A program made the translations under genes and the position numbers. Below, piece by piece: positions 12,200 to 59,871 of a stretch of DNA of 64,000 bases (positions within the stretch are counted from its first letter, which is position 1; the number at the start of each line of letters is the position of its first letter). The stretch is from Escherichia coli (lineage in GTDB: Bacteria; Pseudomonadota; Gammaproteobacteria; Enterobacterales; Enterobacteriaceae). The notes beneath the pieces were generated by a model, which was given only the letters and a program-made list of their open reading frames with translations, ran no database searches and was not told the DNA's origin. Location of the stretch: assembly GCF_003018115.1 (NCBI RefSeq), contig NZ_CP027457.1. One strand, written 5' to 3'.

Positions 12200-12412
12200 G
12201 CTAATTCTCCTGACAATTAAGAGGATGAGTTTTATATATAAAGGCATTAAACATGAGTCATATTTACTTCCTGTGAAAATAATCTTTCTGTAATTAAACC
12301 TTCATCTCCTTCGGGGTGAGCAATACATAATGCATCTTGCTATGAAAAACACAGGGATATATAAATCTTCCTTCTGACCTATTTAATAAAACGTGAATGT
12401 AAAAGTTATTCT

Positions 12413-13135: not shown

Positions 13136-13233
13136 TACGTTCTCCTTCAAATGTGTTCGGAGAGAGAATAGAACTTTATGATTGGTTCCAGTATCCTGCT
13201 TTCAATGTACTCAGTGGTTAGCGGCATTAAACA

Positions 13234-36685: not shown

Positions 36686-37822
36686 TTACGAAAGCCCGCT
36701 CCCCGCAAGGACTGACGCCAGATAGTTTCTGTCCATGGCTGCTTTTCGCATCTTACGTCTTAACCCTGCCTTGAATACCTTATCATTCGTCAAAATATTA
36801 ATAGCAATGTGCCGTATCCCTGAAAATAATTCCGCTGCATTTCCTCTTCTTATTCTGCAGTCGTCTTCATTCATTACCACGTCCAGGCGCCAGTGCAGCT
36901 TATTTTCCACGTGCCAGTGATTTCGGTTCGCTGTGGCGAACTTCTCTGCAGTTAAATCAGCAGAGCTGATATAATATCTGACCGTCATTTCGGGTTCTTT
37001 CTTTTGTTCTGCTATTATTGACCGAAAGGAGACTGCCACGCATAATTTCTTCAGCCCTTTCCATTCAAACGTGAAATCAATAAGTTCATCAGGGACATCG
37101 CAAACAATATGAAGACGGATTTCTTCTCTGCCGTGACTCTTTTCACTGATTGCGTAACTGTCATGCTCTGGATTATTTAATTCTTTCAGCGGAAATTTTT
37201 CCTCAAAGGCTTTATTTAGCCGCCCCTGGTTTCCTTTTACCGCGAATAAATAATCACCTCCCTGTTTTTGTATCTTCTCTGCAATATCTTTCTGGCAACC
37301 CATCGCATCAGTTGTGATGATTTTTCCTTTAATATCCAGCATGTTAAGAAGTTCTGGGATAGCTGTAATCTCATTAGATTTCTCATCCGTCCTGATCTGT
37401 CCGATGACCAGACTGTGCATTGTTGAGAACGCACTAATGACATGAATCGCTCCCCTGCGGCGACTCTTGTCATAAGAGTGCCGGAGCGTTTTTCCATCAA
37501 TTGCAATGACGTCTTTATCATCTGAAGAATGGCAGTCACGCATCCAGTTAATAAAGCACTCGTGAAATTTTGCAGGACTGATACAGGATACAACTCTGGC
37601 AATGGTATCGTGAACAGGAATACCATTTTCAAAATCACCATATTGCTTCAAAAAATCGAGATGTGTTTCCCCAAAATCCTCTATATCTTCCCAACCCTCT
37701 GCACCAGAAATGACGGCACAAATAGTCAACAGTAGAATATCTGACAATTTATGTTCTACTTTCCAGGCTTGTCTGTAATCGGGGATAATAGAAATATGTT
37801 CCATCAGTTTTTTAAGTTCCAT
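36686..37822 (-). mobile_element. ISAs1-family transposase (H-repeat-associated protein), complete
   Basis: 378 aa [60 protein letters not shown]... DDE transposase typical of Rhs-associated H-rpt. Confidence 0.9.
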
Positions 37823-38290: not shown

Positions 38291-38668
38291 TCACTCCTGA
38301 CCAAAATTTTTCCACACTAATGCATGAGACTTTGATTTGTCACCCAGAAATTTACTTACATCTTGCCAAAGTAAAGAATTGCTATCGGTCGCAGTGACTA
38401 TTGCCTCTATAAGCCCTGTAGCTACAACTGTGGCCAATTCATCATCAAGCGAGACCATACCATCTTCGACATGTTTAAATATTTTTTCTCTTTCAATATC
38501 CCCCATTTCATAAAAATTTTTTACAATCGTTTTTCCAACCTGAGAGAACAACATAACCACCGGTGGCGTTTCTGGATGCCAGTATTCATTAGCTAATGAG
38601 ACTGTCTCAGACAAAACAGTGGAAAATGATGCCATTTTTTCTATATAACTAGCAATATATTGGTTCAT
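38291..38668 (-). CDS. Putative Rhs immunity protein (RhsI), family unassigned
   Basis: 125 aa acidic ORF whose ATG shares one base with the Rhs stop (TAATG); AT-rich like the Rhs CT. Confidence 0.7.
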   Translation of the reverse strand: MNQYIASYIEKMASFSTVLSETVSLANEYWHPETPPVVMLFSQVGKTIVKNFYEMGDIEREKIFKHVEDGMVSLDDELATVVATGLIEAIVTATDSNSLLWQDVSKFLGDKSKSHALVWKNFGQE

Positions 38669-41600
38669 TACTTGCCTCCCAAAGCATTCTGTAAATCCTG
38701 AAGAACGTTTTCTGCTGCTGCTCGATCCCCTGGAGATGCTGTTGGATTCTTATCCAACCAATCCTGTAAAGCCCTTGTATAATCCTGTGCTTTCAATACA
38801 TGTCCTCTACCACCAACTTTTTCACCTGTGGCCAATTCATAACGAACAGCATCTGCTGTGCTTCCACTTCCTACTTTTGCATTTGGCCGATAAAGATCGT
38901 CTATAATATTTTTCAAATTTGAATCTGTAACGTCGGGTTTTCCCATTTTCTGTCGCAATTCATCTTTATACCGTTCATGCTGCATACGATCCCTTGCGCT
39001 ATTCTCATCTTCTGGTCCCCATCCTCCCGGGCTTCCCGTACTGCCGCCGGCCAGGCAGTTCTTCTCTTCATCCGTCAAATCCTTCCCAACATTCGGCTGA
39101 CTCCCTGACGAATTATCATTCTCATGTGGGCTATCTAAAGGACAACTACTGGTCCAGTAACACATTTCAGCCTGAGAATTTATTAACTGCCCATCGCTCA
39201 GAGCCTTCCCGGCACGCCCATCATTAGCGAGAAGGTCATATCCCATTGGCCCAGCGACCACAGCCATTGCTCCAAGAGCAGGGGCAGCAGACGCCATAGC
39301 CGCCGTGACTGCATCAAAAGTCGCCGCCCCACCCGAAAGTAACGCCCCCCCAAATTCTGTTCCTGTTACTGTTGTGGCAGAACCAAGAACCAGTGTCTCA
39401 CCAGACAACCCAAGAGGATCCCCCCGCTGCACCGGGTTCAGCGGATACGCATACAGGTTCCATCCCCCCTTCAGCCCAATGGGATCCTGGGTGATATAGC
39501 GTCCCTGCAACGGATCGTAGTACCGGTTCCGGTTATAGTACAGCCCCGACTCCTCATCATACTGCTGCCCCGGCAGACGGAGTGACTGTTGAAGGTGCTG
39601 CGCGCTGGTTTCGCCCAGCAGGTTTCCCCACTCGTCATACTCCCCCTGCCACGCCGTTTCCCCTTCCGGGCTGATGAGCGCCAGCGGCAGTCCCCGGTGG
39701 TCGCAGTGGTAAAGATGAAGTTTCCTCTCCGGGATGTATTCCGCCTCCAGCTGTGCGGCCATCTGCTCCGCCGTCAGCCCGCACTGCGCAAGCCATGCCT
39801 CACTCTCCGCACTCACCGCTCCCGCGCGCAGTTCCCGCTCCAGCCTCCCCAGCATCACCGACAGCTCCGCCGGTAGCGTCACACCCGTGTCCTCCTGCAA
39901 CACCTCCGCCAGGCTCCGGTGCCGCGCCTTCGCCTGTTCGCCATTCTCTGTTTCGATTCTCAGGAGCGGCGTGAAGCTCCCCGGCTGGTATACCGTCTGG
40001 ATACGCGTGGTGCCGGTCTGTATCGTCGTCAGCCTGTCACCGTCCCACCCGTACCATGTCACCTCCGGTTTACGCGACAGCGACATCCACCCCGTCAGGT
40101 CACGCTCCCGCCGCCATACCCGTTTTCCCGTCCGGCGGCCCAGCGGGTCATAGAGGTACCGGCTCTCCACCTGTGGTTCGCCGTGCTGTATCCGCGTGTA
40201 GAACACCAGGCGGTGCTGGCTGTCGTAGTGATAGTGGTGGGTGCGCTCGTCGTGCATCCGGATAACCCCTTCCGGGATACGGTCCGTCTTCTCCGCCAGC
40301 CTGCCGTATTCATCGTGGCGGTAGACATAGTGCGCATCCTCCGCGATGCGGTTATCCGGCCACGCCGTGAGCGTGCTGTCCGGGTGCAGTTCCGGGTCCG
40401 GCAGCCGGTTTCCTGCCGGGTCCGTCGCATACGGGATATCAATGTCCAGGTTCGCTGCCGTGGTGTGGACGCCCGTCAGCCTTCCCGTGCCGCTGTAACG
40501 GTACTCCCGGCTCTCCTGCGGGCCGCTGATGCGGATTAGCTGTCCGTTGTCGTTCCACGTATACTCACGGTCAAGCTGCGGAAGGTTCAGGTGCCTGCTC
40601 CGGAGCTGGCCGCTGGTATTCCAGGCGGTGGCAAGTTCATATGCCTCCCCGCCGAAGCTGCGGGCCGTCTCACGGTGCAGCCGGTCCCGCGTGTACTCGA
40701 CCAGCGGCGTTCCGCCCAGCTTCATCCCCGCAAGATAACCGCTGCCATACGTCAGCCACTCCACCGGCGGCAGACCGTCCGGCTCCTGACGGGTCGCCAG
40801 CCCCTGTTCGCTGTACGCATGCCCCGTCTCATGCTCCCACAGCATCTCCCCCGTCTCCGGGTTCTCCACCGTCTGCCGTTCGCCCGTCAGGCGGCCTTTA
40901 TCGTCATAGCCGTAGTGGACCGACACGCGGTGGCCTTCACTGGTATGGCTGAGGGTGGTTAACCACCCGTGCTCATCATACTGCCACTGCTCTGCCGGGT
41001 CGCCGTTCACCGTCCGGTGCGTGATGCGGTCCGACGCATCGTAGTGCCAGAGGGTGATAAGCCCCTCGTCTTCACTCTGCGTGAGTTTTCCGGTCAGGTC
41101 ATAGTGGTAACGTTGCGTCCGGCCGTCAAAACCGCGCTGTTCAGTCAGCCTGTCCACCGGGTCATACCGGAACGTGGACTGGCTGCCGTTCTCGTTGGTC
41201 AGCACGGTGATGCGCCCGGCAGCGTCATACCCCATGCTGCGCGTAAGACCGCCTTCCGTCACACTCACCGGACGCCCGTGTTTATCATATTCGATGGTGC
41301 TGCGTTTACCGTCCGGTGATATCGTTGCTGTCAGGTCGCCTGCGGCGCTGTACTCATAACGGATTTCACGCCCCTGCGCATCCTTCTGACTGACCAGTTG
41401 CCCACGCGGGTTATAACTGCTGTAAGTGCTGATGCCTTCCTCCCGGTGAACGGCGATTTGTTGACCGTACCAGTCATACTCATACCGCGTCGTGTACCCC
41501 GAGCAGTCCGTGAAGGCCCGAAGCTGACCGTACCGGTTTCGCGTTATTCTCCGCGTCACCCCGGTTCCGTCTTCCACCGCGCCGGGCAGGCTACTGCGGG

Positions 41601-43173
41601 GGGAGTCATAAAACCAGCGCGTAATGTTACCGTTGCGCGAGGTCTCTTCTGCCAGTCGGCCCTGACGGTCATATTTCCGGTTGCTGCGTAAACCATCCGG
41701 ATATGTCACTGAAGTCAGTTGCAACTGGCTGTTGTAACCATACCGTACCGTCCTGCCGTCCGGCAGTATCACTGAAGTCAGCTTTCCAGACGCCATATGC
41801 AGCCGGTACTCCGTCCGCCGCCCCGCCGCATCCGTCTGCGCCTTCAGCCTCCCCGCCTCATCATACTCGCTGCGGGTGATGCTCCCGTCCGCATGTTCCT
41901 TCTTCACCACACGCTTCAGGCCACCTTCGCCCTCCGTGTACAGCACCTCCCGCCGGTTCAGGCTGTCCGTGATGGTCACACGGTCCTGCCCGTACTCAAA
42001 GCGGTAGTCCAGCCCCTCCGGGTTGACCTGTTCTGTCACCCGACCGGTATCATCATACCGGTAGCGGCTCTCCGGCCTCCCTGCATAATGGTGCGCCACC
42101 ATCCGCCCGGCGTGCTGCACATCATAAGTAAACCCGCGCACCTGCGTCCCGCTGCGGTCATACACCGCCCGCAGTTCTCCGCTGGCCGTGTACGTGTAGC
42201 GCGCCAGCGGCGCAGTCGGCTGTTCATCCGGGTATGCCGGGTCGTGTGTCAGCCACACCGCCTCCAGCCGGATACCGTTATCGGCACCGTACTCTGTACC
42301 GGCGGGCAGCGTGTCGGGGAAAGCTGAAGAAAAGGAAGAAGAGGAAACAGAACGGGGACTGGCCGGGGAAGATAAGGAAGACTCGCGCTGTTTACGGAAG
42401 GCTTCCGCCCGCTGCGCCTGTGTGGTCAGCGCCAGGTGAAAACGGCGGCCCGCGCCGTCCGTCACCCCCGTCACCGCGCCCGCCACGTCACCCTCCGCCG
42501 CCCTGTGAAAGGCCAGCGTCCGACCAAAGCCATCCACCACGCCCGTCAGCACCCGGTATGCGGGCGGCTCCGGCGGCAGCACCTCGTCCGCCTCCGGCAC
42601 CCGCTCCGGCCAGCTGAGCACCAGCCACTGCCCGGTTGTGCTGACAGCCATCATATAGGTGTGTGGACTCAGACGGACCGCTTCCGGCAGCGCCCGCCAG
42701 AGCCGGGCCAGCGGGTGGCCTTTGTGTTGTTTCAGCACCCCACCCCTTGCCAGCCAGAGTGACTCGCTGCGGCTGTAGCTTATCTCGCCGGGAAACAGCG
42801 GCTCAAAGTGAATGCTCCTGCCGCCGTTGTCGTTGAGTATCAGTTCCCGCTCATGAATCTGTAAGCGGATATCAAAGGGGGCTTTCCAGCCGGGGCCAAA
42901 CACCCCCACCGGCGCGGGCGTCCTGGTCCGGTAACTGCTGTAGGCACGGGAAAGAATGAACGGCAGCGGGCCGGGCAGCGCAAGGTCCGTCTCGCCCGGC
43001 AGCACCTTCGCACCCAGTAGCGGGTTCACCGGGTTAGCATAGGTAATCCCTCCCGGACACACCGAGCAGGCCACTCCCGTCGGCGCACCTATCAGCACCC
43101 CCGCTGAACCCTGCACAATATCCAGTCCCTTGCGGGTCATATCACCCTGCCGCGCCGCCGGTTTTCCGCCCAT
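38668..43173 (-). CDS. rhs: Rhs-family polymorphic toxin: N-terminal PAAR-like region, YD-repeat core, variable C-terminal toxin domain
   Basis: 1501 aa; N-term [12 protein letters not shown]...[10 protein letters not shown]; many YD repeats; core ends [27 protein letters not shown]; ~245 aa CT encoded at 38671..39405. Confidence 0.9.
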
Positions 43174-43248: not shown

Positions 43249-45390
43249 TCAAAATTGCCGCATATCCGGCATTCCGGGGGGTAAATCTTTCGGCACAGGC
43301 GCATCCGGTACAGGTTGTGTGGCACCACAGTTCCAGTTAATCACCGGCGCATCACCGTTCACATCCGACTCCCCTTCCAGATGAATGTGCGTACCATTAA
43401 GAAATATGCTTCCGTCCTTCGTCAGCACCAGCCTTGCCTTACCACAGCAGAGTTCAAGATGCTCACCGGCAGAATAAACTGCTGTTTGTCCGGTGTTTTC
43501 CTTCATCGTCTTGCCCACCGAGAAGGTGACGTTATTCCCTACATTGACGCTGTAGCCCATTCCCACCATCAGTGATTTATGCAGCCCTACCTGTGAGGAC
43601 TGCAACAACGCCACCGAGGTATTCATAATGCCGCCTACCGTCGTCTGATACGCCACACCCACCGTCAGCGCACGAATGATCCCCACCTTTTCAACCTGGT
43701 TTGATCCCACTTTGATAATCTGGTTACTGCCCACCGTTTCCACCTGGTTGACACCAACCGTCTGTATCTGATTAACGCCAATGTTCTGGATCTGGTTATT
43801 GGTAACGGTGATCGCCTGGTTGTTACCTATTTTTTCGGCATGGTTGTTTATCACATCAGTGGTGCGGTTATTCAGCACCTCGGTGTTCATGTTCTTCTGC
43901 GCGTGGATGTAGACCTGTTCTTTCCCTGTCGCATCGTCAAACTTCAGTTCATTAAACCCGCTGCCCTTATAGGTTTTCGAACGAATGGTCATCTGCGTCT
44001 TTGTTCCCGGCAGGCTGCCGGGTGTGCGGTTTTCCTGGTGGTAGGTGCGCCCCATAATGATCGGCTGGTCCGGATCGCCGTTGAGGAAGTCCACAATCAC
44101 CTCCTGACCCACACGCGGTATCGCCAGGTTACCAAACCCGGTGCCTGCCCACGCCTGTGCCACACGGATCCAGCATGAACTGTCCTGGTTTGACGGGTTA
44201 TAGCGGTCCCAGTTAAATTTCACCCGCACGCGACCATGTTCGTCGCAGAAGATTTCCTCGCCTGCCGGTCCCGTCACGACGGCGCTCTGCGGGCCATCCA
44301 CCAGCGGTTTCAGCAACGGCTGTGGTCGCCATGTTCTGTCTGCCGGTATTACCGCAAAATGGTTATCCAGCGTGGTGCCTGAACCCCTGCGTCCCGGTAC
44401 CGCCTGCGGCTGTTCGCCGTGAAGATCGCTCGCCACCACCTGCCATTCCCGGTTCAGGTTCGCCTGCGGATGCCCCGTCAGCACAATTCGCCGTCCCGGC
44501 CATATCTCCGGCGAACGGCTTGTTCCGCGCGCCACTTCTGCGTTGTTTCGCCAGCCATCCATCTGCCAGCGGGCAAAGTTCTGCCCGTGGGCACCCTTGA
44601 AACGTCCGGGGTAGTCATACACTTCATACTGTGTGCGCTGGTAATCCTGGTACTGGCCTTCCTGATCAAAACGCCCTGCCCAGCCGGGTCGTTTAAAGGT
44701 GTAGTCTTTGGTCACCACGGAAGAAGGGCGGATTTGTGCGCTGTAGCGAAACTGGCTGATGCAGAGGGTGCTTACCTCGGTACGGGTGTTCGGATTCCAG
44801 GGGATCTCAAAGGACTCCGGCAGATAACGCACGGTATCGCACAGGACCAGGCTCTGGTCGGTACTTTTTTGCGCGTGCTCCTCATAAAAGAAGATGCCTT
44901 CCTCCGCCGCCATCCGGCACAGGAAATCGTAATCAGTCTCACCGTACTGGACACAAAACTCACGGGAAGGATGCGGTTCACTGAACAGCGGACTCCACTC
45001 GGTCACCCCGTTTTCCTGCAATATCGTGCCGAGGATGCTTTTGATGTCCTCGTTCTGGAAGATACGGAAGTTCTGGCGCAGCCCTGTGCGCCACAGCGGC
45101 GGGCATACCTTCATGCTGTACAGCTTCTGGTTTTTGTCGTTCTCCCCCAGTTCAAACCAGGTCACCACACCTTTCACCCGGCGCTGTACGTCATCGCCCT
45201 GCCATATCGTCAGGTAGGCCATTTTGTCGAGGATCTGCTGGAATTCAAGGGAGAGAAACTGCTGGCTGACCAGAGAGAGAGCGAGGGAAAAAAGCGAAGA
45301 GAGTGACTGGTTCAGATGAAAGGAGACCACCGCAAAAGCATCCGGTGGCAGGCCGTCCACTTCCAGCGTGAAACGTAATCCGGTTGACAT
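43249..45390 (-). CDS. vgrG: Type VI secretion spike protein VgrG
   Basis: 713 aa; gp27/gp5-like VgrG; 75 bp upstream of rhs. Confidence 0.9.
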   Translation of the reverse strand: MSTGLRFTLEVDGLPPDAFAVVSFHLNQSLSSLFSLALSLVSQQFLSLEFQQILDKMAYLTIWQGDDVQRRVKGVVTWFELGENDKNQKLYSMKVCPPLWRTGLRQNFRIFQNEDIKSILGTILQENGVTEWSPLFSEPHPSREFCVQYGETDYDFLCRMAAEEGIFFYEEHAQKSTDQSLVLCDTVRYLPESFEIPWNPNTRTEVSTLCISQFRYSAQIRPSSVVTKDYTFKRPGWAGRFDQEGQYQDYQRTQYEVYDYPGRFKGAHGQNFARWQMDGWRNNAEVARGTSRSPEIWPGRRIVLTGHPQANLNREWQVVASDLHGEQPQAVPGRRGSGTTLDNHFAVIPADRTWRPQPLLKPLVDGPQSAVVTGPAGEEIFCDEHGRVRVKFNWDRYNPSNQDSSCWIRVAQAWAGTGFGNLAIPRVGQEVIVDFLNGDPDQPIIMGRTYHQENRTPGSLPGTKTQMTIRSKTYKGSGFNELKFDDATGKEQVYIHAQKNMNTEVLNNRTTDVINNHAEKIGNNQAITVTNNQIQNIGVNQIQTVGVNQVETVGSNQIIKVGSNQVEKVGIIRALTVGVAYQTTVGGIMNTSVALLQSSQVGLHKSLMVGMGYSVNVGNNVTFSVGKTMKENTGQTAVYSAGEHLELCCGKARLVLTKDGSIFLNGTHIHLEGESDVNGDAPVINWNCGATQPVPDAPVPKDLPPGMPDMRQF

Positions 45391-45599: not shown

Positions 45600-46118
45600 T
45601 TATGCTTCCAGCGGTGCGCGCCAGTCGTCGGCACCGGAGGTGCCAGATTTGACGTGTTCCCATTCAATTTTGCGGTAGGCCAGTGAAACTTCGAGCAACT
45701 GGGTGAACTCGCGTTTCGCCGGGTCCTGGCAATGCGGCATATGCAGTTTCATATCGACAATCGTCGAATCAGTCAGGCGGGTAGTGAAATAATGCTCCTG
45801 TTTGCCTTCCACAGAGGTACGCCACCAGTGAAGTTCAGTGGTTGGCAGCATTTCGCCGGAGGCCAGTGCGTTGTACATCAGCGGAACCGCTTTGTTCAGC
45901 GCCACGGTAAAAATGAAAGGCTTGTGAGCACGCTGACCCGCAGGCTGACCGGACTGAGGATCGGTCGGGACAGTAACGTTATGCAGGAATTCCTGCACCA
46001 GCATCTCGTCTTCGTGCCCCTGCACATAGATGTTGCCGACAGAATCAGCGGTAAATGCACCTGCAGTAATATTTCCCTGGGTCTGACCAGTGATGGAGAT
46101 ATAACACGGTGTTGGCAT
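45600..46118 (-). CDS. hcp: Type VI secretion tube protein Hcp (TssD)
   Basis: 172 aa MPTPCYISITGQTQGNITAGAFTADSVGNIYVQGHEDEMLVQ. Confidence 0.9.
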   Translation of the reverse strand: MPTPCYISITGQTQGNITAGAFTADSVGNIYVQGHEDEMLVQEFLHNVTVPTDPQSGQPAGQRAHKPFIFTVALNKAVPLMYNALASGEMLPTTELHWWRTSVEGKQEHYFTTRLTDSTIVDMKLHMPHCQDPAKREFTQLLEVSLAYRKIEWEHVKSGTSGADDWRAPLEA

Positions 46119-46815: not shown

Positions 46816-47316
46816 ATGAGCAAAAAATTTGAAGGCAGCGTCGCGCCTCGCGAGCGTATTAATATATCGTATGTCCCAAAAACAGATGGCCAGACGGCTG
46901 AAGTGGAACTTCCGCTTAACATGCTCGTTGTCGGCGATACCGGAAATACGCAGGAAACATCCCCACTGGATGAACGTCAGGCAGTTTCCGTTAACAAGCA
47001 CAATTTCGGTGCAGTGATGGCTGAAGCAGCCATTGGCCTCAATTTTACCGTCCCTGCCACACTGAAGGGAAGCACAACGGACGATGAGCTGAATGTGGCG
47101 CTGAATATCAAGTCACTGGATGATTTTTCACCAGATAGCGTGGCCCGGCAGGTTCCGGAAGTGAATAAATTGCTGGAACTGCGTGAAGCACTGACTGCAC
47201 TGAAGGGGCCGATGGGTAACCTTCCGGCATTCCGTACCCAGCTCCAGGCATTGCTGGAAAATGAAGAGTCCCGCGAGCAGTTGCTCAAAGAAATCGGCCA
47301 GGTGAGCAATAAATAA
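46816..47316 (+). CDS. tssB: T6SS sheath small subunit TssB (VipA)
   Basis: 166 aa MSKKFEGSVAPRERINISYVPKTDGQTAEVELPLNMLVVGD. Confidence 0.9.
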   Translation: MSKKFEGSVAPRERINISYVPKTDGQTAEVELPLNMLVVGDTGNTQETSPLDERQAVSVNKHNFGAVMAEAAIGLNFTVPATLKGSTTDDELNVALNIKSLDDFSPDSVARQVPEVNKLLELREALTALKGPMGNLPAFRTQLQALLENEESREQLLKEIGQVSNK

Positions 47317-47350
47317 CCACCACTATTTCATTAAACAGGGTTATCCAGGC

Positions 47351-47575
47351 ATGACGGCACACAAAAATATCTCCGGGACATACCACCTCTCTGTTGCAGA
47401 CATTCTGCAGGTGGTTTACCAGGTATGTTTCAGCCCGTCCGTTGAAATCAACCAGGATGGTGTGGCTGCGCTGATTACAACACTGGATCGCCGTATCAGT
47501 GATCTATTGGATGAGATTATCCATTTTTGTGAGTTTCAGCAGAGCGCGTCGCACTGGCAGCGCGTACTTCACTGA
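47351..47575 (+). other. 74-aa ORF paralogous to the N-terminal region of TssC (fragment or divergent duplicate)
   Basis: ...ALITTLDRRISDLLDEIIHFCEFQQSASHWQRV aligns to TssC ...SMIADIDERISRQMDVIIHAPAFQQVESFWRSL (~40-45% identity over ~60 aa). Confidence 0.45.
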
Positions 47576-47625
47576 CGGCGAAAAGCCGGTTTCAGAAACA
47601 CAGCTAAAACAGAAGGATTTTCAGT

Positions 47626-49101
47626 ATGTCTTTACAGGAAGAGGAACTCGTTTCCAGTCATGCCGGGCAGCCTGAGCAGGCATCGTCGCTGCTTGATCAA
47701 ATCATGGCACAGACCCGTATTCAGCCCGGTTCGGAAGGTTATGACGTTGCCCGCCAGGGTGTGACAGCCTTTATTGCCAGCATCCTGCAATCCACTGCAT
47801 CTGCCGAACCGGTCAATAAACTGGCCGTGGACAGCATGATTGCAGATATTGATGAACGCATCAGCCGCCAGATGGATGTCATCATCCATGCGCCTGCCTT
47901 TCAGCAGGTCGAGTCGTTCTGGCGCTCACTGAAAACCATGGTGGATCGCGTTGATTTCCGTGAAAACATCAAGGTCAACGTGCTTCATGTCACCAAGCAG
48001 GAACTTCTGGAAGACTTTGAGTTTGCGCCAGAAATTATTCAGTCCGGATTTTATAAGCACGTTTATTCGTCCGGTTTCGGACAGTTTGGCGGTGAACCCA
48101 TCGCTGCCGTGCTGGGCGCTTATGAGTTCAAAAATACCGCGCCTGACATGAAACTGCTGCAATACGTCAGTGCCGTGGGCGCAATGGCGCACGCACCGTT
48201 CCTGTCCTCCGTTTCCCCGGAGTTTATGGGGCTGAACTCGTGGACCGAACTGCCTAATATCAAAGATCTTTATGCCATCTTTGAAGGTCCGGCCTACACC
48301 AAATGGCGCGCCCTGCGTGACTCGGAAGATTCGCGCTATTTAGGGCTTACGGCACCCCGCTTCCTGCTTCGCCAGCCCTATTCACCAACAGATAACCCTG
48401 TTAAGAACTTTAACTATTACGAAGATGTCAGCCAGAACCACGAAGATTATCTGTGGGGTAATACGGCCTGGATGCTGGCATGCAATATCGCAGACAGTTT
48501 TGCCAAATACCGCTGGTGTCCAAACATTATCGGTCCGCAAAGCGGCGGCGCAGTGAAAGATCTGCCGGTGCATCTGTTCGAAACGATGGGGCAGATTCAG
48601 GCCAAAATCCCAACCGAGGTGCTGGTCACCGATCGCCGCGAATTTGAACTGGCTGAAGAGGGTTTTATCACCCTTACCATGCGTAAAGACTCTGATAATG
48701 CAGCCTTTTTCTCTGCAAACTCGGTACAAAAACCGAAGCACTTTCCGGGAAAAGATGCAGAAACCAACTATAAGCTGGGTACGCAGCTTCCTTATCTCTT
48801 CATCATCAATCGGTTAGCGCACTACATCAAGGTGTTGCAGCGTGAACAACTGGGGTCATGGAAAGAAAGGAGCGACTTAGAAAGAGAGCTTAATACCTGG
48901 ATCCGTCAGTATGTTGCCGACCAGGAAAACCCGCCTGCAGACGTGCGCAGCCGCAAACCTCTGCGCGCTGCCAAAGTTGAGGTTATGGATGTAGAAGGCG
49001 AACCCGGCTGGTACCAGGTTGCGCTAAGCGTGAGACCTCATTTTAAATTTATGGGGGCAAATTTTGAGCTTTCCCTGGTTGGCCGGTTAGACAGGGAGTA
49101 A
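47626..49101 (+). CDS. tssC: T6SS sheath large subunit TssC (VipB)
   Basis: 491 aa; HAPAFQQVESFWRSL conserved TssC motif. Confidence 0.9.
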   Translation: MSLQEEELVSSHAGQPEQASSLLDQIMAQTRIQPGSEGYDVARQGVTAFIASILQSTASAEPVNKLAVDSMIADIDERISRQMDVIIHAPAFQQVESFWRSLKTMVDRVDFRENIKVNVLHVTKQELLEDFEFAPEIIQSGFYKHVYSSGFGQFGGEPIAAVLGAYEFKNTAPDMKLLQYVSAVGAMAHAPFLSSVSPEFMGLNSWTELPNIKDLYAIFEGPAYTKWRALRDSEDSRYLGLTAPRFLLRQPYSPTDNPVKNFNYYEDVSQNHEDYLWGNTAWMLACNIADSFAKYRWCPNIIGPQSGGAVKDLPVHLFETMGQIQAKIPTEVLVTDRREFELAEEGFITLTMRKDSDNAAFFSANSVQKPKHFPGKDAETNYKLGTQLPYLFIINRLAHYIKVLQREQLGSWKERSDLERELNTWIRQYVADQENPPADVRSRKPLRAAKVEVMDVEGEPGWYQVALSVRPHFKFMGANFELSLVGRLDRE

Positions 49102-49107
49102 CACACC

Positions 49108-49521
49108 ATGATACCGGATCGGGAAAGAACCACAGGTTCTCTTTTTGAGCGTATGGAAGCCTCTTCGGCCAGAAACCGGCAGGGAGGCAGTATTCATTCG
49201 CTCAGGCAATCCATTCGCCAGAACCTACGAAACATTCTTAATACCCGGTCCGGTAGTTGCCGGGGTGCGCCTGAGCTGGGCATTGATGAACCGGAAGGGG
49301 CTGAAAACTTCCGCGAATCCATGAGTCGGGCCATCGAGCAATGTATAGAACGCTATGAACCCCGGATCTCACACGCTGAAGTGCAGGCAGTGGTTTCATC
49401 CGCCTCCAGCCCGCTGGATATGACGTTTCATATTACAGCCTGGGTGACATTTAACGAAACGCATGAGGTGCTTGAATTTGATATGGCACCGAATGGCAGC
49501 CAGCATTACCGGGTGGACTGA
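49108..49521 (+). CDS. tssE: T6SS baseplate protein TssE (gp25-like)
   Basis: 137 aa; position after tssC. Confidence 0.8.
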   Translation: MIPDRERTTGSLFERMEASSARNRQGGSIHSLRQSIRQNLRNILNTRSGSCRGAPELGIDEPEGAENFRESMSRAIEQCIERYEPRISHAEVQAVVSSASSPLDMTFHITAWVTFNETHEVLEFDMAPNGSQHYRVD

Positions 49522-49524
49522 CAA

Positions 49525-51375
49525 ATGGAATTTGAAGAACGCTATTTTCGGGAAGAACTCGATTACCTGCGCCAGCTTAGCAAGCTGCTGGCAACGGAAA
49601 AACCCCATCTGGCCCGCTTCCTGGCCGAAAAAGATGCGGATCCGGATATTGAACGCCTGCTGGAAGGGGTGGCTTTTCTTACCGGCAATCTCCGCCAGAA
49701 AATTGAGGATGAATTCCCAGAACTGACGCACGGGCTTATTAAGATGCTATGGCCTAATTACCTGCGTCCGGTTCCGGCAATGACCCTTATTGAATATACG
49801 CCGGATATGGATAAGTCTTCTGTACCGGTGTTAATCCCCCGTAATGAGCAGTTTACAACCAACGCCGGGGAAATCAGAGTTGATGAAGTGCTGCCCTCTG
49901 ATGCTAAAAAGGAGGAGCCGCCTCCCTGTACCTTCACCCTCTGCCGGGATATCTGGCTGCTGCCCGTTCGCCTGGAGCAGATTGAAAACCGCAGTACGAC
50001 CCGTAATGGTGTTATCAACATCACCTTTTCGGTCGCACCGGGAACGGATTTCCGCACGCTGGATCTGAACAAACTTCGCTTCTGGCTCGGCAATGACGAC
50101 AACTATACCCGTGACCAGCTTTATTTATGGTTCTGCGAATACTTGCAGGGTGCCGACCTGACTGTGGGTGAACAGCATATTCGCCTGCCTGAGTTTATGC
50201 TAAAAGCTGTCGGTTTTGAGCCGCAGGATGCCATGCTGCCCTGGCCGAAAAACGTCCACAGCGGCTACCGGATCCTTCAGGAGTATTTCTGTTACCCCGA
50301 TGCGTTTCTCTTTTTTAATCTTTGTGGTTGTCCGGCTTTGCCTGACGGATTGCAGGCGGAATTCTTTACCCTGCAACTGCGTTTTTCGCGCCCTTTGCCC
50401 GTGGACATCCGGCTGCGCCGCGATTCCCTGCGCCTGTATTGCGCACCTGCCATTAATTTATTTATCCACCATGCAGAAGCCATCACGCTGGACAACCGGC
50501 GGGCAGACTATCCGCTGGTTCCCAGCCGCCATTACCCACAACATTACGATGTATTTTCCGTTAACAGTGTGGTGAGCCAGGTCCAGGATATGTTCAGGAA
50601 AAAAGATCTGGGGCGTCCTGTTTCGACGCAGGCCGCGCGCCAGTGGCCAGCCTTTGAAAGTTTCAGCCATCAGATGGAATACAGCCGGAAGCGGGAAGTG
50701 GTGTACTGGCATCACCGGACCAAAACATCCCTGTTCCATCGCGGCTTTGATCATACCCTTGCCTTTATACATGCTGATGGCAGTTATCCGTCAGACGAAT
50801 CTCTGCTCAGTAATGAAGTGGTTTCGGTATCGCTGACCTGTACCAACCGTGAGCTTCCGTCACAAATTCGTTCCGGCGATATCACCGGCACAACCGGTAA
50901 AAATGCGGCTGTTGCTTCATTTCGCAACATTACCCGCCCGACGCAACCACTCTGGCCGGTCATTGATGGCAGCCTGCACTGGTCCCTACTCTCCGCCATG
51001 AACCTGAATTATCTGTCATTACTGGATACGGACGCGCTGAAGCAGGTCATCGCCAACTTTGATCGCCACGCAATCCATCATCCGCAGACGGCACGGCTGT
51101 CACAACAAAAGCTGGATGCCATTGAGCGTCTGGAGACCCGCCCCGTTGATCGCCTGTTTACGGGTATTCCCGTCCGGGGGCTGGCCTCCACGCTGTATCT
51201 GCACCCGGAGCCGTTTGTCTGTGAAGGGGAAATGTATCTGCTCGGTACGGTGCTTTCGCATTTTCTGTCGCTGTACGCCAGCGTTAACTCATTCCACATG
51301 CTGACCGTTGTGAACACAGAAAGCCAGGAGACATGGAAATGGACGGAAAGAATCGGGCAGCATCCTCTTATCTGA
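49525..51375 (+). CDS. tssF: T6SS baseplate protein TssF
   Basis: 616 aa; position and size. Confidence 0.85.
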   Translation: MEFEERYFREELDYLRQLSKLLATEKPHLARFLAEKDADPDIERLLEGVAFLTGNLRQKIEDEFPELTHGLIKMLWPNYLRPVPAMTLIEYTPDMDKSSVPVLIPRNEQFTTNAGEIRVDEVLPSDAKKEEPPPCTFTLCRDIWLLPVRLEQIENRSTTRNGVINITFSVAPGTDFRTLDLNKLRFWLGNDDNYTRDQLYLWFCEYLQGADLTVGEQHIRLPEFMLKAVGFEPQDAMLPWPKNVHSGYRILQEYFCYPDAFLFFNLCGCPALPDGLQAEFFTLQLRFSRPLPVDIRLRRDSLRLYCAPAINLFIHHAEAITLDNRRADYPLVPSRHYPQHYDVFSVNSVVSQVQDMFRKKDLGRPVSTQAARQWPAFESFSHQMEYSRKREVVYWHHRTKTSLFHRGFDHTLAFIHADGSYPSDESLLSNEVVSVSLTCTNRELPSQIRSGDITGTTGKNAAVASFRNITRPTQPLWPVIDGSLHWSLLSAMNLNYLSLLDTDALKQVIANFDRHAIHHPQTARLSQQKLDAIERLETRPVDRLFTGIPVRGLASTLYLHPEPFVCEGEMYLLGTVLSHFLSLYASVNSFHMLTVVNTESQETWKWTERIGQHPLI

Positions 51376-52421
51376 GTCCGGGAAATCCCCCGGCAGATAA
51401 AGAGCAGAATGATCCGCTGGCACAGGTTTTCCATAATGCCTGCTCTTACAATTTTTTTGCGATGGCGGAGCTGTTGCACCGCCTGGCAAAGGGTGAAAAG
51501 GGGACGCCAGAATTATCCCTGCGCGACGATCCGGCACAGGAAACCCTGCGTTTCAGCGCCGATGCCAGCCTTGCCTTCCCGTGCAGTGATATCAGTGCGC
51601 TGAAACGGGATACGTCAGGGGCATTCAGGATGACCACCACCTTTATGGGGTTACAGGGGAGCCAGTCGCCTCTCCCCGGTTATTACCTCGATCACCTGGC
51701 CTGGAAAGCGGTACATGAACAAAGTCCGGTAGGTGATTTTCTGGATATGTTCAGCCACCGCCTGACCCAGTTTGTCTGGCATATCTGGCGTAAGTACCGC
51801 TATCACATCAGTTTTCGTAACGGCGGTGTGGATGCGTTCTCGCAGCGCATGTACTCCCTTGTCGGGCTGGGCCACCGCCAGCTTCGCGATAAGCTGGCGA
51901 TTAATCACAGCAAAATGCTGGCGTATTCCGGGATCCTGGCAAATCCGGGACGATCCCCGGAAATTATCTGTGGCCTGGTGTCCCACTGCTTTGATTTGTC
52001 AGAAGTGACGCTGCAAAACTGGCAACGTCGCAAGGTGGATATTGAACCGGATCAGCAAAATAGTCTGGGGAGCTATTCTCTTAAAAATGGCGAAAAACTG
52101 GCGGGAAGATCGGTACTGGGCAACTTTGTTCTGGGTACACAAGTGCCCGATCTCAGCGGAAAATTCCAGCTCAGTATTACCAGCCTGACCCGAAAACAGT
52201 TCCTCTCTTTTCTGCCGTCCGGCGAAAACTTCCTGCCACTGACGATGTTCGTGTCCTTCATCCTGCGCGATCAGCTTGCCTGGGACTTACATCTGGGGCT
52301 GGCGCCGGAGCAGGTGGGCGCAATGCGCCTGGGCGATAACAAAAGTGCGCTGCTGGGCTGGACCAGCTTCCTCGGCACACCGGAAGAACGCCCCTCAGTC
52401 ACCATCAGGGTACGGTCGTAA
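51333..52421 (+). CDS. tssG: T6SS baseplate protein TssG
   Basis: 362 aa; overlaps tssF end; exact start uncertain. Confidence 0.8.
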   Translation: MEMDGKNRAASSYLSPGNPPADKEQNDPLAQVFHNACSYNFFAMAELLHRLAKGEKGTPELSLRDDPAQETLRFSADASLAFPCSDISALKRDTSGAFRMTTTFMGLQGSQSPLPGYYLDHLAWKAVHEQSPVGDFLDMFSHRLTQFVWHIWRKYRYHISFRNGGVDAFSQRMYSLVGLGHRQLRDKLAINHSKMLAYSGILANPGRSPEIICGLVSHCFDLSEVTLQNWQRRKVDIEPDQQNSLGSYSLKNGEKLAGRSVLGNFVLGTQVPDLSGKFQLSITSLTRKQFLSFLPSGENFLPLTMFVSFILRDQLAWDLHLGLAPEQVGAMRLGDNKSALLGWTSFLGTPEERPSVTIRVRS

Positions 52422-52424
52422 ATT

Positions 52425-53726
52425 ATGATAATCACGGAGCAGAATATGCCGGAAGAGAAACTACAGACGCTTTCATTGCAGGTCATTAACGGCAGTGAGC
52501 TGGAAAGCGGGCGGGCGGCGCGCTGTCTGTTCACACAGCAGGGAAATGTCGGCCATGGCCCCGAATGCCACTGGTCGGTACAGGATCGTCAGCAGAGCAT
52601 TCCGGCCCAGGCTTTTACCGTTATCCTGCACGATGGCACATTTTGTCTACGCCCGCAGACGGCACAACTGTGGCTGAATCAGGCAAAAGTCACAGCAACA
52701 TCAGACCTGATACAGTTGCGCCAGGGCGATGAGATCCAGATCGGACGGCTGATGGTGAGGGTTCATCTGAACCGGGGAGATATTCCCCATTACGATGAGG
52801 AAATGGCCACTCCCGAAACCATCGTTACCAATCGCGATATGCTCACGGATACCCTGCTATCAACGGAGGGTGCGCCACACTATCCGGGAATGACTCACCG
52901 GCACCAGCTTGCAGACACCGTGGTAAACGGTTTTTCTGCCGATCCACTCCAGGCACTTCAGTCCGAAAGCCTGATTACCACGGGCGATCCGCTTTCAGGC
53001 ATTGCGGCTGTCCGGCCATCGGCACCGCTGTCCGATCCGGCAAGTAATGGGGGGATCAATACTCCGTTTATGGATCTGCCGCCCATTTATGCCAGCCCCG
53101 GCGATCGTAATGACGACGTCTCTGCGGCAGAAATGGCGCAACGCCACCTTGCGGTCACCCCCTTACTGCGCGGTCTTGGCGGCTCGCTTACCATGAGCAA
53201 TTCCGACGATGCGGATGATTTTCTGGAGGAGGCCGGACGAACGTTACAGGCCGCAATAAAAGGTCTGCTCGATTTGCAGCAGCAGCGTAACAGCCTCTCA
53301 GACAAACATTTGCGCCCGCTGGAAGATAACCCGCTGCGCCTGAACATGGATTACGCCACCGCGCTCGACGTGATGTTTGCCGAAGGTAAAAGCCCGGTAC
53401 ATCTGGCGGCTCCCGCCGCCGTCAGTGAAAGCCTGCGCAATGTCCGCCACCACGAAGAAGCTAACCGGGCAGCAATTGTGGAGTCGCTTCGTGTCCTGCT
53501 GGATGCTTTCTCACCACAAAATCTGCTGCGCCGCTTTGTGCAGTACCGCCGCAGCCATGAACTGCGCCAGCCGCTGGATGATGCCGGAGCATGGCAAATG
53601 TACAGCCATTATTACGAAGAACTGGCCTCCGATCGCCAGCAGGGGTTTGAGATGCTGTTTAACGAGGTCTACGCCCAGGTCTATGACCGGGTGCTTCGTG
53701 AAAAACAGCGGGAGCCGGAAGCATGA
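52425..53726 (+). CDS. tagH: T6SS FHA-domain protein TagH (Fha)
   Basis: 433 aa; N-terminal FHA-like region (LSLQVINGSELESGRAARCLF...LHDGTFCLRP...NQAKV). Confidence 0.7.
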   Translation: MIITEQNMPEEKLQTLSLQVINGSELESGRAARCLFTQQGNVGHGPECHWSVQDRQQSIPAQAFTVILHDGTFCLRPQTAQLWLNQAKVTATSDLIQLRQGDEIQIGRLMVRVHLNRGDIPHYDEEMATPETIVTNRDMLTDTLLSTEGAPHYPGMTHRHQLADTVVNGFSADPLQALQSESLITTGDPLSGIAAVRPSAPLSDPASNGGINTPFMDLPPIYASPGDRNDDVSAAEMAQRHLAVTPLLRGLGGSLTMSNSDDADDFLEEAGRTLQAAIKGLLDLQQQRNSLSDKHLRPLEDNPLRLNMDYATALDVMFAEGKSPVHLAAPAAVSESLRNVRHHEEANRAAIVESLRVLLDAFSPQNLLRRFVQYRRSHELRQPLDDAGAWQMYSHYYEELASDRQQGFEMLFNEVYAQVYDRVLREKQREPEA

Positions 53727-54247
53727 ACAGGAAGGCGTTTCTGGCCTGCGTGCTGATGTGCGTCATATTAACCGGCTGCGAAACGGCGAAAAAAATCAGC
53801 GAGGTGATCAAAAACCCGGATATCCAGGTCGGGAGCCTGAAGGAGCAACCTTCGGAAATAACCGTCACCCTGCTGACTGAACCGGACACCAATACCAATG
53901 CGGAGGGTGAATCAGCCGCCGTGGATGTGCAACTGGTGTACCTGACTGACGACTCAAAATTGCAGGCAGCCGACTATGACCAGATAGCCAGTACGCCGCT
54001 ACCGGATGTGCTGGGTAAAAACTATATCGACCACCAGGATTTCAACCTGTTGCCGGACACCATCAAAACCCTGCCGCCGATAAAGCTGGATGAGAAAACG
54101 CAGTTTATTGGTGTCGTGGCCTATTTCTCCGATGACCAGGCCACTGAATGGAAACAAATCGAGACGGTGGAAGGAACCGGCCACCATTACCGCCTGCTGG
54201 TGCATGTACGTCAAAGCAGCATCGAAATGAAAAAAGAGGATGAATAA
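53723..54247 (+). CDS. tssJ: T6SS outer-membrane lipoprotein TssJ
   Basis: 174 aa; lipobox LTGC after signal peptide. Confidence 0.85.
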   Translation: MNRKAFLACVLMCVILTGCETAKKISEVIKNPDIQVGSLKEQPSEITVTLLTEPDTNTNAEGESAAVDVQLVYLTDDSKLQAADYDQIASTPLPDVLGKNYIDHQDFNLLPDTIKTLPPIKLDEKTQFIGVVAYFSDDQATEWKQIETVEGTGHHYRLLVHVRQSSIEMKKEDE

Positions 54248-54249
54248 TT

Positions 54250-55581
54250 ATGGCAACCACCCGCAATAAGGTGATGTGGCAGGAAGGGATGCTGATGCGC
54301 CCACACCATTTCCAGCAACAGCAGCGTTACAACGACTACCTGGATAACCAGCGTTTCCGGGCCATGAATGATTTATCCTGGGGATTTACCGAACTCACCC
54401 TCAACAATGAACTGCTGGCGCAGGGTAAGATCATGATTGACAGCGCGTCAGGCACACTGCCTGACGGCACCGTCTTTTCTATCCCCGACCAGGACGCACT
54501 GCCCGATCCGCTGCACCCGCAAAATTTTCCGGACGAAAGAAGCCGCAATATTTACCTCGCTCTGCCGGTCGCCAGTGATGTGAGAAATGAAATCAGCGAC
54601 GGGCGGCGAATCGGGCGTTACCGGCTGAATTATGCCGATGTCCGGGATCTGCATTCAGAAGAAGGCGACGCGCGAACACTGACGCTGGGACAACTGACGC
54701 CGCGCATTATGAGCGGTGCAGAAGATATGAGTGCCTATATTACGCTCCCGCTTTGCCGTATCAGCGATCGCCATGCCGACGGCTCCCTGACGCTGGATGA
54801 CGATTTTATCCCCTCCTGCCAGAATATTCAGGTCAGTAAGAAACTGCGTGTTTATCTCAAAGAGGTACAGGGGGCCATTGGCGGACGGGCAAGCGATCTG
54901 GCAAACCGTATTGGCTCTCCGGCGCAGAGCGGCATCGCGGATGTGGCGGAATTTATGATGTTGCAGTTGCTTAACCGTAACCAGACCCGGTTTACCCATC
55001 GCGCCCGCCGATCCCAGCTCCACCCGGAAGATTTCTACCTTGATCTTGCCGGGTTGCTGGGTGAACTGATGACCTTTACAGAGCCGTCACGCCTGCCCTG
55101 CCCGCTTGATGTGTATGATCATCATGACCTGACCAAAACATTTAAAACACTGTTACCGGAAGTCAAACGGGCGCTGCATACCGTACTGTCGCCAAGAGCG
55201 GTCAATCTGCCGCTGCATCTGCGTGACGGCATCTGGCAGGCCGATGTTCATGACTCGGAACTGCTACAGTCTGCCACCTTTGTACTGGCCGTGGCAGCAA
55301 ATATGCCTGTCGATCAGATCCAGCGTCAGTTTATCCAGCAGTCGAAAATTTCCTCGCCGGAAAAAATCCGCAATATGGTCAGTGTGCAGATCCCGGGTAT
55401 TCCTCTGCGCGCACTGATGGTGGCCCCCCGCCAGCTTCCCTACCATTCCGGGTTCAGCTATTTCGAACTCGACAAGAGCGGCCAGACCTGGACAGAAATG
55501 GCTGCCGCCGGGGCCGTTGCACTGCATGTATCCGGCAGTTTCCCGGATCTGAACATGCAACTGTGGGCGATAAGAGGGTAA
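54250..55581 (+). CDS. tssK: T6SS baseplate protein TssK
   Basis: 443 aa; position and size. Confidence 0.85.
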   Translation: MATTRNKVMWQEGMLMRPHHFQQQQRYNDYLDNQRFRAMNDLSWGFTELTLNNELLAQGKIMIDSASGTLPDGTVFSIPDQDALPDPLHPQNFPDERSRNIYLALPVASDVRNEISDGRRIGRYRLNYADVRDLHSEEGDARTLTLGQLTPRIMSGAEDMSAYITLPLCRISDRHADGSLTLDDDFIPSCQNIQVSKKLRVYLKEVQGAIGGRASDLANRIGSPAQSGIADVAEFMMLQLLNRNQTRFTHRARRSQLHPEDFYLDLAGLLGELMTFTEPSRLPCPLDVYDHHDLTKTFKTLLPEVKRALHTVLSPRAVNLPLHLRDGIWQADVHDSELLQSATFVLAVAANMPVDQIQRQFIQQSKISSPEKIRNMVSVQIPGIPLRALMVAPRQLPYHSGFSYFELDKSGQTWTEMAAAGAVALHVSGSFPDLNMQLWAIRG

Positions 55582-55585
55582 GACG

Positions 55586-56347
55586 ATGGATGAGGGGTCA
55601 CTGTCTCTGCCACCATTTACCGGATACGACGAAAAAAGCCTGCGCGACTACCATCTCGCGCTTCGTGGCAACAGCCTGAATCCGATGATCGACGCGGCGA
55701 CGCCGCTACTCGGTATGGTAATGCGCCTTTCCACCATGAACAGCCAGACGATGCCGGAGCATCTTTTTGCTCAGGTGGTGACAGATGTTCAGGCCGTGGA
55801 GCAACTGCTTCAGGAACAGGGCTACGAACCGGGCGTGATTATCTCGTTTCGCTACATCCTCTGCACGTTTATTGATGAAGCGGCGCTCGGTAACGGCTGG
55901 TCGAACAAGAACGAGTGGATCAAGCAGTCATTGCTGGTCCATTTCCACAACGAAGCCTGGGGTGGCGAGAAAGTTTTCATCCTGCTGGAGCGCCTGATCC
56001 GTGAACCCAAACGTTACCAGGATCTGCTGGAATTTCTCTGGCTCTGTTTTTCTCTGGGATTTCGCGGGCGCTACAAAGTGGCAGTACAGGATCAGGGGGA
56101 ATTTGAGCAGATCTACCGCCGTCTGTACCACGTTCTGCATAAACTGCGCGGCGATGCCCCTTTCCCGCTGTTACACCAGGACAAAAAAACCCAGGGCGGG
56201 CGTTATCAGCTCATCAGTCGCCTGACTGTTAAACATATTTTTTGTGGTGGCGTTGTCGTGCTGGCGTTGTTTTACCTGTTCTATCTGTTGCGGCTGGACA
56301 GCCAGACGCAGGACATCCTGCACCAGCTAAACAAATTACTTCGATAA
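55586..56347 (+). CDS. tssL: T6SS membrane complex protein TssL (DotU)
   Basis: 253 aa with single C-terminal TM helix (GGVVVLALFYLFYLL). Confidence 0.85.
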   Translation: MDEGSLSLPPFTGYDEKSLRDYHLALRGNSLNPMIDAATPLLGMVMRLSTMNSQTMPEHLFAQVVTDVQAVEQLLQEQGYEPGVIISFRYILCTFIDEAALGNGWSNKNEWIKQSLLVHFHNEAWGGEKVFILLERLIREPKRYQDLLEFLWLCFSLGFRGRYKVAVQDQGEFEQIYRRLYHVLHKLRGDAPFPLLHQDKKTQGGRYQLISRLTVKHIFCGGVVVLALFYLFYLLRLDSQTQDILHQLNKLLR

Positions 56348-56355
56348 GGACGTTT

Positions 56356-59867: not shown

Positions 59868-59871
59868 AAAT

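Follow-up and report, generated by a model that had tools for sequence, protein, structure and literature searches.

What toxin is carried at the end of this Rhs protein, how might it reach its target, and which protein would hold it in check in the cell that makes it? These questions are raised by a 64,000-nucleotide (nt) stretch of Escherichia coli DNA (contig NZ_CP027457.1 of assembly GCF_003018115.1), here called the window, in which an intact rhs gene stands among the genes of a type VI secretion system (T6SS), ends in a tail of 245 amino acids (aa) and is followed at once by a small open reading frame (ORF). A preliminary description of the locus, made from its sequence, had taken the tail for a C-terminal toxin of unassigned family with a tightly coupled cognate partner gene, and that pairing has stood up well: it is conserved in about 60 loci. 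The account that we consider best, and probable as a whole, is that the tail is the polymorphic end of a T6SS-1 Rhs effector and joins a module for entry to a toxin of the PT5 family, against which the downstream gene would supply an immunity protein of the DUF7674 family.

The toxin domain occupies residues 1390-1501 of the Rhs protein (38671..39006, minus strand) and by alignment belongs to the PT5 family of Nachmias et al., who validated nine new polymorphic toxin domains (bioRxiv 10.1101/2021.10.19.465003). The PT5 representative in Table S2 of that study is WP_084153669.1, a 119-aa protein of Rheinheimera baltica DSM 14885, to which BLASTP places the window toxin at 54% identity over 91 residues (E 5e-34). 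One of our loci (L058) is a contig of this same R. baltica strain. Its toxin ORF, counted from the second Met, is exactly 119 aa long, and the three peptides encoded by the PT5 mutagenesis primers (DAI[R>A]HEALT, GKF[H>A]TTKGEQYA and SPS[D>A]RSAA) all match it. Because the strain, the length, the primer-encoded peptides and the BLASTP match agree, we identify the window toxin as a new member, carried by an E. coli Rhs, of an already published family; the pathogen table for PT5 names Vibrio vulnificus only and not E. coli (bioRxiv 10.1101/2021.10.19.465003).

The preliminary view that the family was unassigned is thus right for the databases and wrong for the literature. The tail has no Pfam match at E<=10 and no NCBIfam match at E<=1, PADLOC and PHROGs gave nothing, and PDB searches, whether run from the toxin sequence alone or from the profile of its family, returned no relative of the toxin, their sole match being a junction that the tail shares with the C-terminal region of the CdiA protein of E. 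coli 536 (CdiA-CT 536). The toxin motif strings that were searched in the catalogue of Zhang et al. 2012 matched no entry, and a literature search found no paper on DUF7674, on the protein accessions or on the motif strings. Two further candidates, HEPN (Rx4-6H) and Fic/Doc (HxFx[DE]GNGRxxR), were rejected on direct reading, their motifs being absent from the toxin.

The published homologue also bears on function. PT5 is toxic in the E. coli cytoplasm when expressed without an export signal, and its H77A change abolishes toxicity (Table S11, bioRxiv 10.1101/2021.10.19.465003). In our alignment H77, R63 and D102 of PT5 correspond to H1458, R1444 and D1483 of the window protein, and cytoplasmic toxicity and dependence on the histidine, carried over from R. 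baltica, would be expected of the window toxin. The activity had been called uncharacterised at the outset; this still holds for the biochemistry and no longer for the family, which has a name and a recorded toxicity in the E. coli cytoplasm. In the same way, the profile search for a known toxin beside a known immunity family yielded the one half, PT5, and for the other a DUF7674 partner that is putative.

Conservation points to the same histidine. His1458 (codon 38800..38802, minus strand) is nearly invariant among 65 family sequences and invariant in sets of 24 and 39 sequences, and this pattern and the equivalence to PT5 H77 make it the probable catalytic residue. The second hallmark is an invariant GSGST loop (residues 1435-1439; 38857..38871, minus strand), which caps the N-terminus of helix 3 and opens the invariant pattern G-S-G-(S)-T-A-x-A-x-R-x-E (residues 1435-1446). 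In domain numbering, G46, S47, G48, T50, A51, A53 and R55 are invariant across the 65 sequences, and divergent members retain the loop; K1461, Y1428, R1429, D1483 and D1493 are conserved as well. AlphaFold2 (AF2) models the domain as a confident five-helix bundle (predicted local distance difference test, pLDDT, 90.7; predicted template-modelling score, pTM, 0.82). The structural comparison that the preliminary description had suggested was run on this model, and Foldseek gave no significant match in the PDB (best E-value 1.3). A divergent orphan relative in Proteus mirabilis (L086, 4845-5680) reads PDGGTVA for GSGSTA and has lost the invariant Arg and Glu while keeping the His and Lys. It is followed by a DUF7674-like ORF of 134 aa, and it may mark a subfamily with altered chemistry.

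How widely is such a toxin used? The last 112 residues have 96 relatives in a word-indexed database, and a profile search collects 2256 representatives of 50%-identity clusters at E<=1e-3 (1504 at E<=1e-10) from more than 12 phyla. A genome scan gave 79 loci, in Proteobacteria, Chlamydiae, Planctomycetes, Actinobacteria, Cyanobacteria, Firmicutes, Spirochaetes, Myxococcota and others. The PT5-type domain is always C-terminal, and its carriers are CdiA/filamentous haemagglutinin, Rhs, WXG100-type, PAAR and ALF-repeat proteins. At least four delivery systems are represented: Rhs with the T6SS, CdiA, WXG100-type type VII secretion, and the umbrella-toxin protein UmbC. L011, L033 and L057 each contain additional copies of the toxin domain, partial or second ones, within one locus, which suggests arrays of orphan cassettes. 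In four loci from Streptomyces and Kitasatospora (L034, L045, L054 and L059) the domain ends ORFs of more than 1100 aa; AlphaFold DB holds relatives of 1206-1213 aa in Streptomyces and Micromonospora, and these relatives, with one ALF-repeat Pfam match, suggest that the four ORFs encode UmbC proteins. The UmbC catalogue lists M. arborensis PYC69226.1 (1213 aa) without a toxin name and calls its partner Imm107 (PMC11062931); from species and length, this protein would be A0A318NHW0. A named UmbC toxin family such as Ntox71 (a predicted lipid II phosphatase) or Ntox63 was considered and set aside, the sole UmbC that could be mapped, PYC69226.1, being unnamed in the catalogue.

Protection of the producer would fall to the downstream ORF (38291..38668, minus strand; 125 aa). 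As first described, it starts on the last base of the Rhs stop (TAATG), its ATG sharing one base with the TAA, and its product is acidic (isoelectric point 4.77; 18 D+E against 10 K+R; grand average of hydropathy -0.07). Sequence analysis finds in it no signal peptide and no hydrophobic or membrane segment, and because the partner lacks these, we place the action of the toxin in the cytoplasm. The arrangement is general: of 68 loci in which the toxin is complete, 67 have an ORF of 96-218 aa (mostly 120-150 aa) behind it, which starts, in all but a few loci, between 40 nt upstream and 16 nt downstream of the toxin stop. A jackhmmer search from the 125-aa protein gathers the downstream ORFs of 60 toxin loci into one family. 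Pfam DUF7674 (PF24722) matches 51 of 57 aligned syntenic homologues at E<=1e-3; the window protein alone is borderline (E 1.1e-3, 19.4 bits), and by its homologues it is a member of DUF7674. The DUF7674 profile run against the PDB returned only a spurious designed repeat protein.

Several observations tie the two genes together. A separate search of 5426 complete E. coli genomes found the toxin and immunity DNA in 402 of them, all chromosomal, and at least 95% identical in 400. Because this DNA is conserved in E. coli and the two genes are found side by side again in about 60 loci spread over more than 12 phyla, the two ORFs are not a chance pair. Across 39 pairs, mean pairwise identity is 51% for the toxins and 24% for the partners, and the two distance matrices are correlated (r=0.57, a value reached in 0 of 2000 permutations). 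When the toxin, a 30-residue Gly-Ser linker and the partner were modelled by AF2 as one fusion with a paired alignment, pTM was 0.83 despite the disordered linker, and the partner formed seven soluble helices (pLDDT ~97); such a pTM would be hard to reach unless both domains were placed confidently against each other. We predict that the DUF7674 protein is almost certainly the cognate immunity protein of the PT5-type toxin. The locus thus supplies a clear candidate for the immunity protein that the original PT5 study lacked.

What, then, is the rest of the tail? As the preliminary description had it, the 1501-aa ORF is intact, its core ends in DPLGL and a tail of about 245 aa (residues 1257-1501) follows. 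The DPLGL self-cleavage motif (residues 1252-1256), read from the sequence, marks the boundary between core and tail and lies at 39406..39420 on the minus strand; the range 39406..39423 given at first took in three extra bases, which are the preceding Gly codon. The hydrophobic, Cys-containing and C-terminal stretches noticed then are all present. They had been read as one toxin with a linker, whereas comparison of E. coli genomes indicates that the tail is three separately exchangeable modules. Hydropathy and comparative genomics define a hydrophobic Gly/Ala-rich module A (residues 1257-1312; 39238..39405, minus strand). Next come a polar segment, which contains the Cys pair C1338/C1344 in CYWTSSC (residues 1313-1359; 39097..39237, minus strand), and a conserved junction of 32 aa (residues 1360-1391; 39001..39096, minus strand), which is recognised by its match to CdiA-CT 536 and by recombination breakpoints at its edges; the toxin domain completes the tail.

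Megablast of the tail region against the same 5426 genomes gives four classes of match. The whole tail is present in about 125 genomes, and in many others the match begins only at about residue 1352-1361 (96-97% identity); in L002 the junction and the same toxin come after another Gly-rich hydrophobic segment, module B. Some genomes follow the tail up to residue 1390 and continue into another C-terminal domain with another small downstream ORF (L003), and about 440 records carry only the 32-aa stretch between both breakpoints (about 83% identity). The breakpoints thus fall near residues 1352-1361 and 1390, at the edges of the junction. Module A is found in 235 genomes and is joined to the PT5-type toxin in only about 125. 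This pattern of matches shows that modules are swapped, with the junction as the recombination joint. In L003 (5959-7027) module A and the junction precede a different C-terminal domain (ending ...VMDGNSRVYELKKR..., possibly ParB-like) and an 85-aa downstream ORF. In L004 (5785-6697), a locus of the class that matches by the junction only, an orphan ORF of 150 aa, situated between two other rhs genes, consists of module B, the junction and a third short C-terminus, and is followed by a DUF3969 gene.

Modules A and B have Kyte-Doolittle maxima (19-residue window) of 1.73 and 1.84, both around the usual threshold for a membrane helix, and both are rich in small-xxx-small spacing; residues 1288-1308 of module A form a probable membrane-spanning segment. 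The polar segments that follow are weakly alike (module B: LLNAQSQMEFW). In other taxa 12 of 28 relatives carried on Rhs have a hydrophobic segment (>=1.6) after the DPxG motif and before the toxin; none of 8 VENN-type (CdiA) relatives has one. A Cys pair is usual in CdiA entry domains (PMC9424206), and Tde1 offers a precedent for entry by a glycine zipper (PMC10240207). The link to CdiA is clearest at the junction: Rhs residues ~1346-1431 match CdiA-CT 536 (PDB 5j5v_B, 5j43_F and 8zyc_B; E ~6e-6). Only the last ~40 residues of the 536 entry domain and the linker take part in this match, and the hydrophobic module has no counterpart there. The junction also precedes Ntox28 toxins in several genera and the third toxin in L004. 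In a Yersinia protein (P0095) the entry-domain segment MTSDEFQHLIMLEMMGNDEIT is followed by a PT5-type toxin, and this segment closely resembles the one upstream in P0238, a near-identical homologue of the E. coli 536 protein. The entry domain of CdiA-CT 536 depends on FtsH (PMC11630599 Table 2). A bolder proposal, which we regard as somewhat doubtful, is that the hydrophobic module and junction are together the T6SS-Rhs counterpart of the CdiA entry domain and that PT5/DUF7674 is an unrecognised enzymatic toxin class; in one variant, PT5/DUF7674 may be a CysK-independent, deeply diverged sister of Ntox28 or may be an enzyme whose action on a new cytoplasmic target rounds the cell. If the part on the module and junction were true, an exchangeable membrane-crossing cassette would be recombining with toxins across the Rhs and CdiA systems.

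The carrier has the features of a T6SS effector. The rhs ORF spans 38668..43173 on the minus strand, and its core (residues 1-1256; 39406..43173), an N-terminal region and YD-repeat cage that ends in DPLGL, matches NCBIfam RHS_core NF041261 with 2513 bits (cutoff 2000), as well as YD_repeat TIGR01643 and Rhs_assc_core TIGR03696. Divergence from other E. coli Rhs proteins begins only downstream of DPLGL. Immediately upstream on the minus strand are the genes of the VgrG spike (43249..45390; TIGR03361, 627 bits) and, further on, the Hcp tube (45600..46118; TIGR03344, 207 bits). On the plus strand, 46816..61284 holds the T6SS core genes TssB, TssC, TssF, TssG, TagH, TssJ, TssK, TssL, ClpV and TssA (NCBIfam equivalogs, all above their cutoffs). 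These ten core genes with VgrG and Hcp amount to a complete T6SS-1 gene set, and because this set flanks rhs, the strain can probably deploy the effector. In annotated E. coli genomes with the same locus, it is the T6SS-1 island between aspV and yafV. The core, the DPxGL motif and the linkage to T6SS genes are thus all present, and T6SS-dependent secretion and killing are predicted from them.

Downstream of the immunity gene is an intact ISAs1 (H-repeat) transposase (36686..37822, minus strand; NF033564, 414 bits), an arrangement that recurs in other E. coli strains. The position of ISAs1 directly after the immunity gene resembles classical E. coli Rhs elements, and in the annotated E. coli loci L001 and L006 a partial ISAs1 copy follows the transposase. 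In L001 (E. coli F9792, 10614-13160) a 5'-truncated Rhs tail and an intact immunity gene stand beside frameshifted or partial T6SS genes, and remnants of this type look like cases in which the immunity gene was retained after the weapon was lost.

In Rhs proteins the cage holds the tail and self-cleavage at DPLGL frees it. We propose that the window Rhs would ride on VgrG with its 245-aa tail held in the cage, to be released by cleavage at DPLGL. The hydrophobic module with the Cys pair would then insert in the inner membrane of the target and carry the toxin across, in the manner of the cytoplasm-entry domain of CdiA. The toxin, to judge by its R. baltica homologue, would act in the cytoplasm as a His1458-dependent enzyme, while in the producer the 125-aa DUF7674 protein would bind and neutralise it, as synteny, co-variation and the fused model suggest. 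For the substrate we have a tentative preference for RNA, with the toxin as a metal-independent tRNase-like nuclease in which His1458 would serve as acid/base and the GSGST loop, Lys1461, Arg1429 and Tyr1428 would bind phosphate. An RNA target is favoured because the essential His lies at a helix N-terminus next to a phosphate-type loop with basic residues, and because the immunity protein is cytoplasmic, the toxin is used behind CdiA entry domains and its structural neighbour fits. A Gly/Ser/Thr loop at the N-terminus of a helix is a common phosphate-binding device. Aligned by hhalign to CdiA-CT 536, His1458 falls on the catalytic His178 and helices 4 and 5 pair in order, at a probability below 1%.

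Several points weigh against this account. The enzymatic role is a prediction for the PT5 family as a whole; the hydropathy of module A barely exceeds the usual threshold, and its part in membrane crossing is inferred; and the fused AF2 model gives no interface, hence no view of the toxin surface that the partner would cover. The PT5 study reported no PIM5 immunity protein, and its R63A and D102A variants kept their toxicity (bioRxiv 10.1101/2021.10.19.465003). The indifference to R63A fits an RNase poorly because R1444 would be a phosphate-binding Arg. Induction of PT5, moreover, gave round cells and aggregates, for which the authors suggested peptidoglycan damage, and more dead, stain-permeable Bacillus subtilis were counted after exposure to lysates of cells that expressed PT5 (bioRxiv 10.1101/2021.10.19.465003). 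The mutant, the cell shape and the lysates would all suit a toxin that hits cell-wall synthesis or cell shape from the cytoplasm, through a nucleotide-sugar or lipid-linked precursor or a target of the MreB/FtsZ type, and the GSGST loop, being of a kind that commonly binds phosphate, could hold the phosphate of such a substrate. We nevertheless regard this as rather unlikely. The argument rests on a description of morphology, and toxins of translation or RNA can also alter cell shape; among the matches listed, no search gave known lipid II phosphatases or cell-wall enzymes, and the one mapped UmbC, from M. arborensis, has no named toxin family in the umbrella-toxin catalogue.

Could the toxin instead be a true Ntox28 (PF15605) member, an anticodon-loop tRNase like CdiA-CT 536? 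It is preceded by the same junction sequence as Ntox28 toxins, both domains are all-helical and of about 100 aa, and an AlphaFold DB entry named 'Bacterial toxin 28 domain-containing' (A0A0X8D552) aligns to the toxin model with 44% identity. That entry carries its Ntox28-type name although Pfam Ntox28 matches 0 of the 85 family members scanned (60 + 24 + 1); the window tail, too, has no match at E<=10. Profile comparison by hhalign stays below 1% probability in three versions of the alignment. The defining motif [DN]HxxE (Zhang 2012) reads GHxxK in the window toxin and xHxxK in the family (H1458, K1461), the Rhs ends in ...NALGGK and has no C-terminal GYGI tail for CysK binding, and the DUF7674 profile misses every chain of the CdiA-CT 536 PDB entries and so finds no CdiI-536. 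A bridge through the divergent Proteus mirabilis relative gave no support either, and with the Pfam scan, hhalign, the published motif and the CysK tail all pointing the same way we judge membership in Ntox28 improbable. A further explanation would make the Gly/Ala-rich module the weapon itself, a membrane-depolarising glycine zipper of the kind seen in Tse5-CT and the helical CdiA ionophores, and would leave the C-terminal domain an accessory role. It has precedents in Tse5 and the type 10 CdiA ionophores, it suits the small-xxx-small repeats and hydropathy (1.73-1.84) of modules A and B, and the construct in which PT5 was assayed kept 13 hydrophobic Gly-rich residues at its N-terminus. The immunity gene, however, travels with the C-terminal domain and not with the hydrophobic module, and its product is soluble, acidic and free of membrane segments, unlike the immunity proteins of ionophores. 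Replacing one His of the C-terminal domain by Ala is enough to abolish the toxicity of PT5, and conservation is much stronger in this domain than in the immunity protein (mean identity 51% against 24%). We consider a glycine-zipper weapon highly improbable, and return to the PT5 toxin with its DUF7674 partner as the preferred explanation.

The new elements here are the PT5 identity of the toxin, DUF7674 as its conserved cognate family, the three-module anatomy with its natural swaps, and the junction that links Rhs to CdiA. PT5 is among the most widespread polymorphic toxin families still without a mechanism, and about 7% of complete E. coli genomes carry a PT5-type toxin. The window places it in a genetically tractable organism, on an intact effector beside a complete T6SS. 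For the question of how Rhs toxins cross the inner membrane of the target (bioRxiv 10.1101/2025.10.28.685041), the natural swaps offer ready-made test constructs: two hydrophobic modules, each on two C-terminal toxin domains, with three toxins in all.

Among known systems the nearest is PT5 of R. baltica itself. It shares with the window toxin the invariant GSGST loop, Arg, Glu, His and Lys, and the same top structural neighbour, the GAT domain of GGA1; both follow an Rhs cleavage motif and a hydrophobic Gly-rich segment, and both are followed by a DUF7674-type ORF. It differs in that it was assayed as a stand-alone 119-aa fragment from an aquatic bacterium, whereas the window domain sits on an intact Rhs beside a complete T6SS. 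CdiA-CT 536 (PDB 5J43/5J5V; an Ntox28 tRNase) shares the junction PN[IV]GKDLTDxEKxxLGG..GS (E 6e-6), a two-part build of entry and toxin regions, and a small all-helical toxin whose fourth helix has a His at its start. However, it is delivered by CdiB/CdiA and not by a T6SS and is released at VENN rather than DPLGL; its entry domain has, for the most part, no relation to the hydrophobic module of the window, its DHxxE motif and GYGI CysK-binding tail are both absent from the window toxin, and the toxin domains have no significant profile similarity. Tde1 of Agrobacterium tumefaciens is, like the window Rhs, a T6SS effector, and a Gly-rich hydrophobic motif apart from its catalytic domain is needed for entry into the target cytoplasm (PMC10240207). 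That motif is N-terminal on a small non-Rhs effector, and the window module is likened to it by its proposed role and not by sequence. Finally, the UmbC proteins of Actinobacteria (PMC11062931) appear to share the toxin domain: in Streptomyces, Kitasatospora and Micromonospora it closes ALF-repeat proteins longer than 1100 aa, and an immunity gene of ~125-147 aa comes next. They differ in that they form secreted particles that act on Gram-positive hyphae and do not work by contact-dependent injection.

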